DNA of 32,000 nt from Halomonas socia (GCA_039725535.1 CP049827.1:2224556-2256555); one strand, 5' to 3'; shown: positions 2,223-9,549, counted from the first letter of the stretch. Program-made: numbers and translations. Notes: generated from the letters alone by a model not told the origin.

Positions 2223-3863
2223 ATGTCAGCGAAACAGATCAAATTCTCCGATGATGCCCGCAAGCGCATGGCGCGAGGCGTTGATGTCCTGGCCAATGCC
2301 GTCAAGGCCACCCTGGGCCCCAAGGGTCGCAATGTGGTGATCGAGAAGTCCTTCGGCGCCCCGACCGTCACCAAGGACGGCGTCTCCGTGGCCAAGGAAA
2401 TCGAACTCAAGGACAAGTTCGAAAACATGGGCGCCCAGATGGTCAAGGAAGTCGCTTCCAAGACCTCCGATGTTGCTGGTGATGGCACCACCACCGCCAC
2501 CGTGCTGGCCCAGTCCATCGTCAACGAGGGCATGAAGGGCGTTACCGCCGGCATGAACCCAATGGATCTCAAGCGTGGCATCGACCAGGCAGTGGTTGCC
2601 GCGGTCAAGGAGATCGAGTCCCTGGCCGTGCCGTGCACCGACGCCAAGGCCATCGCCCAGGTCGGCACCATTTCCGCCAACGGCGACTCGCGCATCGGCG
2701 AGATCATTGCCGATGCCATGGAGAAGGTCGGCAAGGAAGGCGTGATCACCGTCGACGAAGGCCGTGGCTTCGAAGATGAGCTGGAAGTCGTCGAAGGCAT
2801 GCAGTTCGACCGCGGCTACCTGTCGCCCTACTTCGTGACTAACCAGGACACCATGGCGGTGGAACTGGAAGATCCGTACCTGCTGCTGGTCGACAAGAAG
2901 ATTTCCAACATCCGCGAACTGCTGCCGGTGCTGGAAGCCGTCGCCAAGGCTGGCAAGCCGCTGGCGATCATCGCCGAAGACATCGAAGGCGAAGCGCTGG
3001 CGACCCTGGTGGTCAACACCATGCGCGGCATCGTCAAGGTCGCCGCCGCCAAGGCGCCGGGCTTCGGTGATCGTCGCAAGGCCATGCTGCAGGACATCGC
3101 GATCCTGACCAACGGCACCGTGATCTCGGAGGAAGTGGGTCTGACCCTTGAGCAGGCGACCCTGGACCACCTGGGCAGCGCCAAGCGCATCACCATGTCC
3201 AAGGAAAACACCACCATCATCGATGGTGCTGGTAACGAAGGCGACATCGAAGCGCGCGTTGGCCAGATCCGTACCCAGATCGAGGACACCTCCTCCGACT
3301 ACGACCGCGAGAAGCTCCAGGAGCGTGTCGCCAAGCTGGCCGGTGGTGTTGCCGTGATCCGCGTCGGTGCGGCTACCGAAATCGAGATGAAGGAGAAGAA
3401 GGCCCGCGTCGAAGACGCCCTGCACTCTACCCGTGCCGCGGTCGAGGAAGGCGTGGTACCTGGCGGCGGTACCGCCTTGGTACGCGTGCTGACCAAGATC
3501 AAGGACCTCAAGGGCGACAACGAGGACCAGACCCACGGCATCGCCATCGCGCTGCGTGCCATGGAAGCCCCGCTGCGCCAGATCGTGACCAATGCCGGCC
3601 AGGAAGCCTCCGTGATCCTCAACAAGGTCAAGGATGGCGAAGGCAACTACGGCTACAACGCCCAGACCGGCGAGTACGGCGACCTGTTCGAGATGGGTGT
3701 GCTGGACCCGGCCAAGGTAACTCGCTCTGCGTTGCAGTCAGCCGGTTCCGTGGCAGGCTTGATGATCACCACCGAAGCCATGATCGCCGATGATCCGGAC
3801 GAGAAAGAGGGCGGTGGCGCCCCCGACATGGGTGGCATGGGTGGCATGGGCGGCATGATGTAG
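2223..3863 (+). CDS. groEL: chaperonin GroEL
   Basis: 546-aa ORF with a full-length GroEL sequence and C-terminal GGM repeat tail ([11 protein letters not shown]). In the stop codon TAG (3861-3863), the G is also the first base of the intron GUGCG. Confidence 0.98.
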
Positions 3864-4416
3864 TGCGACGAGAGTCGCTTAGGTAGCTAGCCTAGCGGGC
3901 TACATCATTGTGGTCACCGACCCTGGAGTCGGTGGCCACACACCCGCAGAAAAAGCAATTTGCTAAACCCGGTATCCGGGGCTTTCTCAAGACCCGGATA
4001 CCGGTCACCTGTAACTAGGGTGTACCGTTCTCGGTGTCTGGGGGAAACCCCGAGTCCTCGCCTCACGGCGACGGATCTATCAATGCTGAAGTTCGGCCAA
4101 ATGGCCGGATGACGTAGCAGAGATTGCCGTGTCTACAAAGCTTGCTGGCACCTAGTGACGCAAGCCTTTCCTGCTATTGTCTCACCTTGGGGTATTTCGG
4201 GGTAACGAGACCTGTTGTTCAGCCAACAGTAGCCTAGGGGTAGTGCATTACTGGCAACGGTGGTGTGCGAAGCTCCCTGACAATGTAGTCCCACCTCGGT
4301 GGACTGTCCGTGCCGCGAGGCACGCCAGTGACTCTGCCAGCAACAGGCGGATGAGACGCTAGGCTGGGTGGTACGACCAACGCAAGTGAACTGCTGATAA
4401 ACACCGTCAACCGCAA

Positions 4417-4441
4417 GGAGCCAAAGTTGCTGACAGGCTTC
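4417..4441 (+). other. candidate EBS2 hairpin of intron domain I
   Basis: Stem GGAGCC/GGCUUC with 13-nt loop AAAGUUGCUGACA. Loop UGCUG (4428-4432) can pair with exon CGGCA (3851-3855, one G-U), 1 nt upstream of IBS1. It lies about 45 nt upstream of the EBS1 hairpin, the expected order. Confidence 0.4.
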
Positions 4442-4463
4442 AACCAAAAGGTGTGTAGCCGGT

Positions 4464-4486
4464 TATGCCCCTTACATCTGGGCATA
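4464..4486 (+). other. candidate EBS1 hairpin of intron domain I
   Basis: Stem UAUGCCC/GGGCAUA with 9-nt loop CUUACAUCU. UACAUC is the perfect complement of the last 6 exon nt GAUGUA before 3863. The hairpin sits on a further 7-bp stem GUAGCCG (4455-4461) / CGGCUAC (4497-4503). Confidence 0.6.
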
Positions 4487-4518
4487 CGCTGACGCACGGC
4501 TACCGGTGGATAGGCAGG

Positions 4519-4526
4519 GTCTAACC
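4519..4526. repeat. 8-bp target-site duplication (left) of IS66 insertion
   Basis: GTCTAACC lies immediately left of the IS left inverted repeat. An identical 8-mer is at 6988-6995. Confidence 0.85.
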
Positions 4527-4609
4527 GTATGCGCCCGGTGAACACACCTTACGCTGAGGCTCCGCGCCGGCGACATTAGGTGTCCACCTATTTTAAGTGG
4601 GCACCTATC

Positions 4610-4975
4610 ATGACGACCCCAAGTACCGAGCGTGAGATTCGCCGCCGGCGGCGCTACACCCGCGAGTTCAAGGCCAGCGTTATCGCCGCCTGTCAGCAAC
4701 CCGATGTTTCGATTGCCCAAGTGGCCCTGGCATATGGGTTGAACACCAACCTCGTCCAGAAGTGGATCCGCCTGGCTAAGAAACAGAGCCACCTGCCGGC
4801 TCCGCCGGATTTCGTGTCGTTGCCTGTACCCACAACAACTCCAGAAAGGCCATCGGCTCAGCCCTCCTCCTCGGACATTACCATTGAGATCCCCAATGCA
4901 CGTGGTGCCATCACCGTTCGCTGGCCGGTCAGCGATGCCGCGCAATGTGTACAGTGGTTGAAGGGGCTGCTGTGA
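4610..4975 (+). CDS. tnpA: IS66-family accessory protein TnpA (HTH, IS3/IS911-type orfA)
   Basis: MTTPSTEREIRRRRRYTREFKASVIAACQQPDVSIAQVALAYGLNTNLVQKWI... ATG at 4610 is chosen over the GTG at 4580. The stop TGA overlaps the tnpB ATG by 1 nt (TGATG). Confidence 0.85.
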   Translation: MTTPSTEREIRRRRRYTREFKASVIAACQQPDVSIAQVALAYGLNTNLVQKWIRLAKKQSHLPAPPDFVSLPVPTTTPERPSAQPSSSDITIEIPNARGAITVRWPVSDAAQCVQWLKGLL

Positions 4976-9000: not shown

Positions 9001-9058
9001 TCGACCAGGGTCAGCACTGCTGCTAGCATGTAACTTCATGTATGCGCAGGAGCTGATC

Positions 9059-9358
9059 ATGGGCGTCACAAAAAGGTGGATGGAGCAGGAAGAGCAAAAA
9101 CTCAACGTCGCCACGGGGATAGCCATACGAGCAGGCGTGCTAGATCGCTGTGAGTTCTGCGATAGTACGGTGTACTCGACCGGCGAAAGCGTTGAGGAAG
9201 CTTATAAAGTCGGTAATACCATGTTCTCAAATGGTGAACTTGATGCGTTCGAGTCTCGCAGAGAGATGACTGATGCCATCAAGGCCACAGTAGAGAGCCC
9301 GGACCATGCCGGCGATTGCTGCTACCACTGCCACGAAAGGATGTTCGGCGACGACTGA
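9059..9358 (+). CDS. hypothetical 99-aa Cys-rich protein (C31xxC34 ... C87C88xxC91), second ORF inside intron domain IV
   Basis: ATG 9059 is preceded by AGGAG (9048-9052) at 6-nt spacing. The stop at 9356-9358 is 2 nt before the 3' strand of the domain IV stem. Sequence: MGVTKRWMEQEEQKLNVATGIAIRAGVLDRCEFCDSTVYSTGESVEEAYKVGNTMFSNGELDAFESRREMTDAIKATVESPDHAGDCCYHCHERMFGDD. I recognise no family. Confidence 0.55.
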   Translation: MGVTKRWMEQEEQKLNVATGIAIRAGVLDRCEFCDSTVYSTGESVEEAYKVGNTMFSNGELDAFESRREMTDAIKATVESPDHAGDCCYHCHERMFGDD

Positions 9359-9403
9359 GCAGATGGCAGTCGGCCTGTACCTTGTACGGGTTTACAGAGG
9401 CTT

Positions 9404-9437
9404 GAGCCGTATGCGGGGAAACTCGCACGTACGGTTC
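9404..9437 (+). ncRNA. group II intron domain V (catalytic hairpin)
   Basis: 34 nt with an AGC triad, 9-bp lower helix, 2-nt AC bulge, 5-bp upper helix and GAAA tetraloop. Confidence 0.92.
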
Positions 9438-9440
9438 TTA

Positions 9441-9475
9441 GGGGGCGGCGGGGCAGAAATGCCCTGCTGCTACCC
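9441..9475 (+). ncRNA. group II intron domain VI with branch-point adenosine (A9472)
   Basis: 15-bp helix (GGGGGCGGCGGGGCA / UGCCCUGCUGCU-A-CCC) capped by GAAA. A single bulged A lies 7 nt from the 3' splice site. The intron ends in AC. Confidence 0.8.
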
Positions 9476-9515
9476 GACAGCCAGCCCCCTGCCCCAGGCA
9501 CTGCCTGAGACAGAC

Positions 9516-9549
9516 CCCGCCGGTGAGAACCGGCGGGTTTTTTTATTTT
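9516..9549 (+). terminator. rho-independent terminator (displaced groESL terminator)
   Basis: Stem CCCGCCGG (9516-9523) / CCGGCGGG (9530-9537), loop TGAGAA, then TTTTTTTATTTT. It lies 37 nt downstream of the intron 3' end. Confidence 0.88.

Follow-up and report, generated by a model that had tools for sequence, protein, structure and literature searches.

The groESL operon of Halomonas socia carries a composite mobile element. We analysed a stretch of 32,000 nucleotides (nt) from this genome (GCA_039725535.1 CP049827.1:2224556-2256555). The whole stretch is referred to as the window, and coordinates are counted from its first letter. Our explanation is that a mobile group II intron of the IIB1 type occupies the groEL stop codon, was later hit by an insertion sequence (IS) of the IS66 family, and carries an exchangeable cargo gene. 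We put the probability of this explanation as a whole at roughly 90%. An earlier interpretation, made from the sequence alone (the sequence-only reading), had treated positions 3863-9478 as a single group II intron. The boundaries hold but the single unit does not; an intron of ~3.15 kb surrounds a nested IS66 element.

An intron in the groEL stop codon

Exact copies of the SpoU-methylase sequence downstream of the insertion were sought in public assemblies, and intron-less alleles came to light. In the flanks, the metagenome contigs L081 and L082 match the window at 99.85-99.97% identity. The same intron-less junction occurs in a third contig (L084, from SRR13789562), whose downstream sequence is 100% identical. 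All three read ...GGCGGCATGATGTAAGCCAGCCCCC..., with the junction ...GGCATGATGTA/AGCCAGCC exactly as the sequence-only reading had predicted. For direct comparison, positions 4036-7897 of L081 equate to window positions 1-3862, and L081 position 7898 onward equates to window position 9479 onward. Because the three contigs join base-exactly at the predicted junction, the inserted unit is 3863-9478. The three empty sites are decisive for the intron boundaries.

The insertion leaves GroEL unaltered. The groEL gene ends ATG ATG TAG and the final G, at position 3863, opens the intron sequence GUGCGAC. Computed removal of 3863-9478 joins ...ATGATGTA to AGCC, creating a TAA stop. The expected ligated junction, across groEL and position 9479, reads ...GAUGUAAGCC.... 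Hence, an empty site gives a TAA stop, whereas an occupied site gives TAG because the first base of the intron is G. The protein (546 amino acids, aa) is the same whether the intron is removed or not, and the same product is called in L081. Such a switch, from TAG unspliced to TAA spliced with GroEL unchanged, had been foreseen, and both the sequence and the empty-site junction agree with it. The groESL terminator had also been placed correctly. Its stem (9516-9537) and T-run lie 37 nt past the junction, as confirmed by a terminator scan and by L081 and L082, where groEL leads directly into it. No other convincing plus-strand terminator follows groEL.

Covariance models and protein domains, like the empty sites, identify the element as a group II intron. 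Scanning the 32-kb window against Rfam at gathering thresholds (34 bits for RF02012 and 40 bits for RF00029) returned exactly two matches, one to each of these models. RF02012 detects the core of domain I. RF00029, which describes domains V and VI, matches over its full length at 9402-9478 (67 bits, E 2.7e-11) and so bears out the 3' boundary. In domain VI both U9471 and A9472 are unpaired, and the RNA 3' end, ...CUACCCGAC, falls at 9478. The intron-encoded protein (IEP) matches RVT_N (4e-33), RVT_1 (1.3e-41), GIIM (7.5e-20) and HNH (4.5e-12), all above Pfam cut-offs. Its Shine-Dalgarno sequence, GAGGAGG, lies in the segment 6996-7344. We conclude that 3863-9478 contains a subgroup IIB1-type group II intron.

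For 40 groEL introns, the 3' half of domain I was aligned and a consensus fold derived with RNAalifold. Compensatory changes occur in 29 of the 47 consensus pairs. Exon-binding site 1 (EBS1) is UACAUC (4473-4478), presented in a 9-nt loop, and forms six Watson-Crick pairs with exon GAUGUA, its intron-binding site (IBS1). Its complementarity to the final six exon bases is exact, as the sequence-only reading had stated, and covariation supports the hairpin. The loop is kept in all relatives and, in one of them (L053), covaries with the exon (CACAUC with GAUGUG). A candidate EBS2 had been proposed 45 nt upstream. Here, UGCUG (4428-4432) can indeed pair with exon CGGCA at positions -12 to -8 (five pairs, one of them G-U), and C4434 in the same loop could pair with exon G-14. 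However, covariation between EBS2 and IBS2 was sought among the relatives and not found; three of them (L002, L020 and L057) pair poorly. With the IS removed, 1,012 nt separate the intron 5' end from the IEP start, versus 615-641 nt in two relatives that are not at groEL (L054 and L056). The 5' extra region adds ~330-400 nt compared with these relatives, and is strongly structured (z = -5.9).

No plus-strand sigma-70-like promoter for the IEP or cargo gene was found inside the intron, in a scan covering sigma-70-type sites only. The sole strong plus-strand terminator of the insertion region is that at 9516. Since neither an internal promoter of this kind nor an internal strong terminator was found, the IEP, IS and cargo are presumably transcribed by read-through from the groESL promoter.

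We surveyed one genome per species and obtained 79 related loci. At 47 of these, in 47 further species, an IEP 66-97% identical to that of the window lies ~1.0-1.5 kb after the groEL stop and the junction reads ATGATGTA/GTGCGAC. Hosts include Halomonas, Spongiibacter, Marinomonas, Pseudoalteromonas, Vibrio, Photobacterium, Photorhabdus and Xenorhabdus, as well as Desulfuromonas metagenome-assembled genomes (MAGs). In an identity comparison made without a tree, IEPs of relatives not at groEL are at most 57% identical to the window IEP. Judged by IEP identity and junction, the window intron is a member of the groEL stop-codon IIB1 lineage. This lineage and its gammaproteobacterial spread are already described; Gomes et al. 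2025 (PMC12584367) call such introns 'widespread among gammaproteobacteria'. The sequence-only reading was right to link the intron to Avi.groEL of Azotobacter vinelandii, which shares its target and lineage. It had also suggested either a conserved homing site or horizontal spread; the 47 loci bear out both, in agreement with the published account.

Avi.groEL and the Escherichia coli intron EcKTE56.groEL lie between the second and third base of the groEL stop (PMC12584367). Traits of the clade are a 5'-subterminal extra domain of 300-700 nt and the TAA-to-TAG change (PMC12584367). Avi.groEL, together with a specialised IIB1 clade at start and stop codons, is attributed to Ferat et al. 2003 and Michel et al. 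2007 in the passages of PMC12584367 and PMC4465626 that cite them. Like the window intron, Avi.groEL turns TAA into TAG, has a large 5'-subterminal domain, encodes an RT (reverse transcriptase) with a C-terminal endonuclease domain and resides in a gammaproteobacterium. It differs in host order, and interruption by IS66 is a feature of the window copy. EcKTE56.groEL also agrees in target, TAA-to-TAG change and architecture (PMC12584367), but its IEP is only ~65% identical to that of the window and its cargo is a DUF2188 gene rather than an Ea8.5-like gene. Moreover, EcKTE56.groEL is uninterrupted and has been shown to be mobile, whereas the window copy has an IS in domain I and is known from its sequence alone. 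The E. coli member retrohomes into groEL with ~100% efficiency and is expressed from the chromosomal groESL locus (PMC12584367). Ordinary IIB1 introns of the CL1 lineage, such as EcI5, share the ribozyme core, the EBS1 and EBS2 hairpins, the GAAA loop of domain V and an RT-maturase-HNH protein. In contrast, these ordinary introns lack such a 5' domain and are found between genes or in mobile DNA.

IS66 within domain I

The IS66 element makes up 2,461 of the 5,616 inserted bases (44%) and was missed by the sequence-only reading. Its ends read GTATGCG... (left) and ...CGCTTAC (right), and 13 of 19 positions agree between its terminal inverted repeats, GTATGCGCCCGGTGAACAC and GTAAGCGAACGGGCATCAC. 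A target-site duplication, GTCTAACC, flanks the element. The unoccupied IS site is found in Halomonas salifodinae (L001), which has an IEP 97% identical to that of the window. This locus is collinear with window positions 3000-4526 and 6988-8985, and the two matches overlap by 8 bp. Hence, the IS is absent from an intron 92-97% identical. The closest plasmid-borne relative, an annotated IS66 on a plasmid of Halomonas sp. HAL1, is 82.5% identical, and no further IS66 copies were found in the window. The element itself is ordinary. As is usual in the family it has three open reading frames (ORFs; tnpA, tnpB and tnpC), a length of ~2.5 kb and an 8-bp duplication, and one end (GTAAGCG) is alike. 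Only the target, a ribozyme core, is notable.

The insertion looks recent because the IS ORFs and the IEP are intact, the duplication is perfect, and synonymous divergence (dS) between the IEPs of the window and H. salifodinae is 0.11. The ratio of nonsynonymous to synonymous divergence (dN/dS) for the same pair is 0.13. No IS-free intron-bearing allele was found in the same species; contigs with the exact IEP either have the IS or break 29 nt inside its right end. A second assembly, CP048812.1, is identical over 16.8 kb except that the window has one extra C at each of positions 5724 and 16332. In CP048812.1 tnpC is called from a later start (404 aa, versus the 516-aa ORF in the window), and two genes (303 and 128 aa) stand in place of a single DctM gene. 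One of the two assemblies probably contains homopolymer sequencing errors at these positions.

The duplicated octamer spans the 3' strand of a short helix and an internal loop with consensus UAUGG / CCUAAG. We take this loop to be the classical 11-nt receptor for GAAA tetraloops. Of the 40 aligned introns, 36 retain its core, UAx/(C)CUAA, and nearly all have GAAA as the loop of domain V. The IS lies between the receptor-like loop and a 9-bp helix that closes this part of domain I. It separates EBS1, EBS2, the receptor-like loop and the closing helix from the remaining ribozyme by 2.47 kb. In this position, the IS probably interferes with domain V docking and domain I closure. The ribozyme would then be crippled, with splicing and mobility lost or strongly reduced. 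The working ribozyme implicit in the sequence-only reading is doubtful for the same reason.

An RT gene beside groEL might also belong to another kind of element, such as a retron or defence RT. Nothing beyond the presence of an RT speaks for this, and it is refuted by the covariance models for domains I and V/VI, the GIIM domain, the EBS1-IBS1 pairing and the base-exact empty sites; we give it practically no weight. More serious is the possibility that the intron-less contigs reflect precise loss, not recent gain in the window's strain. Their flanks are 99.85-100% identical to the window, which makes the change recent in either direction, and the intron could conceivably have been lost by recombination with cDNA made from spliced RNA, or when an intron-less allele replaced groEL. 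However, retrohoming into exactly this site has been demonstrated experimentally for a family member, while loss would need to be base-perfect three times, or else inherited. The G+C content is 0.57-0.585 for the intron and 0.54 for the cargo gene, versus 0.646 for the window, and the site is polymorphic among genomes ~99.9% identical. Both features suggest recent arrival of the intron, and we consider loss improbable. Whether the intron is still a working ribozyme and retroelement is a separate matter. In that case the IS66 RNA would loop out, and the duplicated 8 nt, which place one copy of GUCUAACC on either side of the IS, would rebuild the receptor and closing helix. The IEP is intact and constrained relative to the IS-free H. 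salifodinae intron, and a ligated-exon contig, L084, exists. Large inserts in domain IV are tolerated, and the E. coli member, of 3,228 nt, retrohomes at ~100%. Yet the IS sits not in domain IV but in the paired core of domain I, beside a conserved receptor-like loop, and a very recent insertion would leave the IEP intact too. L084 runs over the terminator into the convergent gene and looks like DNA of an intron-less strain. Continued activity is doubtful.

Several points nevertheless weigh against our explanation of a IIB1 intron disrupted by a later IS66. The receptor was assigned from motif resemblance and position only. Organellar group II introns that splice in trans tolerate breaks in domain I, and a 2.5-kb insertion could in principle loop out. 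L084 could be DNA of an intron-less strain or spliced RNA. The EBS2-IBS2 pairing is weak, with exon position -9 varying freely and no compensation. The order of events, intron first and IS second, is not observed but inferred from the duplication and the IS-free relative. The promoter scan was confined to one class of sites.

A cargo slot in domain IV

A second gene in domain IV had also been overlooked. It encodes a 99-aa protein resembling Ea8.5 of phage lambda and is preceded, 7 nt before the start, by the Shine-Dalgarno sequence AGGAG. The protein matches solved structures of prophage Ea8.5 homologues (PDB 2m7b, 1.4e-9 over residues 1-91; 2m7a, 5e-5). Three of its five closest homologues in a collection of 5.8 billion proteins were checked and are 62-64% identical. 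In all three hosts (Klebsiella pneumoniae, the Enterobacter cloacae complex and Photobacterium leiognathi) the homologue lies in a groEL intron, in the order groES, groEL, IEP and Ea8.5-like gene. The H. salifodinae intron has a different gene at this position, encoding a 74-aa DUF2188 protein (L001 7779-8003; slot 7642-8036). Similarity between the two introns ends at window position 8985, within the last IEP codons and past the HNH motif, and returns at 9388, 14 nt ahead of the RF00029 match at 9402. From this comparison, the slot would run from the last conserved RT codons to the stem just before domain V.

Similarity stops and resumes at the same limits in four other pairs of introns. The E. 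coli intron L089 has DUF2188 where the Klebsiella intron L090 has Ea8.5 (88.5% nucleotide identity). The Ea8.5 gene of L043 is replaced by DUF2188 and a second ORF in L044, and by DUF1508 in L045 (87-89%). L011 carries a 77-aa ORF and L046 Ea8.5 (92%). Finally, L036 has Ea8.5 where L044 has DUF2188 and a second ORF (84%). Hence, slot contents are incongruent with IEP relatedness among introns 84-97% identical. Most groEL introns, including those of the window, L001, L089 (5247-5610), L036, L043-L046 and L090-L093, have a variable segment of 290-720 nt between the RT stop and domain V, with one or two small conserved genes. Clustering of slot ORFs in the surveyed loci identified DUF2188 at 11 loci, Ea8.5-like genes at seven, YjcQ-like genes at five and DUF1508/YegP at three. 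A cysteine/histidine-rich family with no Pfam match occupies three loci (L026, L028 and L029), a weak NarE-like match one, and several pairs and singletons the others. At the slot position there are only 8-72 nt in seven groEL introns and in the non-groEL relatives L049 and L051-L056. In these relatives, 8-38 nt separate the RT stop from domain V and there is no cargo slot.

The cargo could instead be decaying filler in a tolerant domain IV loop. Several members (L002, L005 and L034) have a spacer of 350-575 nt with no recognisable ORF, seven have no spacer, so that the slot is dispensable, and every cargo family still lacks an assigned function. Filler is nonetheless very unlikely given how the genes evolve. 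The proportion of nonsynonymous differences (pN) is far below that of synonymous differences (pS) throughout. Ea8.5 cargo has dN/dS of 0.15-0.25 where dS is measurable (0.15 for L090 and L093), and pairs of DUF2188 cargo genes have pN of 0.09-0.20 versus pS of 0.72-1.0. Within the same pairs, conservation of DUF2188 also exceeds that of the IEP (78-86% versus 65-77%). Recognised families are all encoded on the intron strand, a Shine-Dalgarno sequence precedes each of the three starts examined (window, L001 and L089), and Pfam scores exceed curated cut-offs. The substitution patterns indicate that the cargo families are real genes under purifying selection.

Clues to cargo function are limited. 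The DUF2188 cargo (L001; L089 5375-5599) matches the PADLOC phage-defence candidate PDC-S16 over its full length (E 3.9e-41). PDC-S16 is only a single-gene candidate label, and may stem from constant association with an RT, i.e. with the intron itself. PADLOC returned no match for the Ea8.5-like cargo of the window, which falls in a PHROG of 'unknown function'. The groEL intron of E. coli LST200A (L089, 2501-5728) is 3,228 nt long, the published length of EcKTE56.groEL, and has a PGAP-annotated DUF2188 gene with a strong ribosome-binding site after the RT. The published EcKTE56.groEL apparently carries this gene, and the text of Gomes et al. 2025 (PMC12584367) makes no mention of a second ORF. 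We found no literature on natural cargo in groEL introns, in a search that did not extend to Ferat et al. 2003 and Michel et al. 2007. Nor did we find a paper pairing a group II intron with DUF2188; the additional-ORF and cargo-gene literature found comprises organellar or engineered cases only. Engineered targetrons (PMC3898094) offer the nearest likeness, since extra genes in domain IV travel with the intron in retrohoming. Those are laboratory constructs, whereas the groEL-intron genes are natural, belong to recurrent families and are exchanged between related introns. We tentatively propose, at somewhat less than even odds, that groEL introns are natural gene carriers, with an exchangeable domain IV slot for genes of phage-accessory type downstream of the groESL promoter.

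Table 1. Coordinates of the groESL operon, the intron and the nested IS66 in the window
Feature	Position	Strand	Evidence or remarks
groES (co-chaperonin), first gene of the operon transcribing the intron	1870..2163	+	Pfam Cpn10 6.6e-33
groEL; stop TAG at 3861-3863, its G is intron base 1	2223..3863	+	Pfam Cpn60_TCP1 3.1e-74
Composite insertion of a group II intron (~3,147 nt for the intron proper) and a nested IS66 with 8-bp duplication	3863..9478	+	Exact absence from L081, L082 and L084; Rfam
Intron 5' end, GUGCG	3863..3867	+	Sequence; 47 other species share GTGCGAC at this junction
5'-subterminal extra region (conserved 5' module and 'subdomain Ia'), approximate limits	3879..4210	+	Spacing versus relatives; folding
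Possible anti-splice-site segment, CUACAUCAU	3900..3908 (intron nt 38-46)	+	Complementary to last 8 exon bases and G1
Domain I core segment	4211..4358	+	Rfam RF02012 (group II D1-D4-7), 114.8 bits, E 9.6e-24
Candidate EBS2 hairpin	4418..4440	+	Stem with compensatory changes
EBS1 hairpin	4461..4489	+	Hairpin covaries among 40 related introns
Target-site duplication, copy 1, GTCTAACC	4519..4526	+	Overlaps 3' half of receptor-like internal loop
IS66-family insertion sequence, 2,461 bp	4527..6987	+	Pfam; absence from L001; inverted repeats
tnpA	4610-4975	+	Pfam HTH_Tnp_1 1.2e-9
tnpB	4975-5310	+	Pfam TnpB_IS66 1.2e-25
tnpC (DDE)	5405-6955	+	Pfam DDE_Tnp_IS66 9.9e-106; zf, LZ and C-terminal domains
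Target-site duplication, copy 2, GTCTAACC	6988..6995	+	Comparison with L001
Rest of domain I, domains II-III, 5' part of domain IV	6996..7344	+	Collinear with L001, 97.5% identity
IEP, 551 aa, intact, YADD motif	7345..9000	+	Pfam
Variable cargo slot, 3' part of domain IV	8986..9387	+	L001 similarity stops and resumes; same limits in four other pairs
Cargo gene, lambda-Ea8.5-like, 99 aa	9059..9358	+	Pfam PF20735 1.2e-10, 42.4 bits versus cut-off 27
Domain V, GAAA loop	9404..9437	+	RF00029
Domain VI, A9472 unpaired (branch point), 3' end ...CCGAC	9440..9478	+	RF00029 alignment
groESL intrinsic terminator, 5.6 kb away from groEL owing to the insertion	9516..9546	+	9-bp stem, 8 G-C pairs, then T7; directly after groEL in L081

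Relatives, history and significance

Variation among the related introns was recorded alongside the main analysis. Seven groEL introns start with A rather than G (L025, L027, L035, L037, L041, L042 and L053). Six of them are in a TGA stop (ATGATGTG/A) and L035 is in TAA; introns starting with A are mentioned in PMC12584367 only for TAA. EBS1 follows the exon change in L053 (CACAUC), and there is a G-U pair in the others. Targets were also noted at L017 (position 128), L019 (141) and L021 (4879). L017 has a different target, ...GGGCGTCAAGAAGTA/G with 3' exon AGTAC..., apparently the stop codon of another gene. L021 has a groEL-like 25-nt target with no GroEL match in the 4.9 kb upstream, which suggests a target mimic or a 3' fragment of groEL.

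Near the intron 5' end, the segment CUACAUCAU forms a 9-nt match within 3853-3863 that at most 1% of shuffles reach, and the pairing forms in the minimum-energy fold. Pairing with the exon end and G1 is possible and would cover the groEL stop codon and 5' splice site. We rejected the segment as a general trait of the 5' domain; the long match occurs only in the window, L001 (9 nt) and L063 (7 nt). Outside the Halomonas lineage only 4-5 nt are kept, CUAC(A), and these may equally pair inside the conserved 5' module. Four of the A-starting introns carry UUAC or UCAC at this position, fitting pairing with nt 1 and exon position -1. These lineages are not independent, and L024 has UUAC with G1.

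In a Desulfuromonas MAG (L030 4743-10789), two 100% identical intron copies of 3,024 nt lie in direct tandem after groEL. Head-to-tail junctions, ...CCUUACCCGAC/GUGCGACGAG, occur here and in L006 (1-110). They could result from a second retrohoming event into the occupied 5' junction, from circular intron DNA or from an assembly artefact. In Halopseudomonas pachastrellae (L063 7309-9887), the groEL intron is broken by a mobile element that lies within the RT gene. It divides the RT at residues 435/429, spans ~2.6 kb and encodes a 509-aa protein, IS21-like by eye, on the opposite strand. The RT of L053 is frameshifted. Because of these two cases, decay of resident groEL introns seems common.

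We picture the history of the element as follows. A IIB1-type intron would have retrohomed between the second and third base of the groEL TAA in H. socia. IS66 would then have transposed into the DNA form of the intron, duplicating GTCTAACC. By splitting domain I, the IS most likely abolished or strongly reduced splicing and mobility. The host would bear no cost in GroEL, only a long 3' extension of the operon transcript up to the original terminator. Cargo contents were most likely swapped by recombination, or by RT template switching, between introns sharing conserved flanks.

The intron itself is of modest interest, and adds Halomonas to the documented groEL stop-codon lineage. IS66 in a ribozyme core is an ordinary event but alters the functional reading. 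Together with its relatives, the window provides a natural trio for comparison of activity: empty (L081 and L082), intact (H. salifodinae, L001) and IS-disrupted (the window). A retroelement can thus occupy an essential and highly expressed operon without cost, and even a broken ribozyme leaves GroEL unchanged. The exchangeable cargo slot is the part worth pursuing. It may be unreported, and can be tested in the existing E. coli mobility system. Slot genes would be expressed from the groESL transcript, which could partly explain the success of the lineage. If the introns are indeed natural gene carriers, the slot would put genes behind the strong, heat-inducible groESL promoter without touching GroEL, and a self-splicing retroelement would be carrying accessory genes linked to heat shock.

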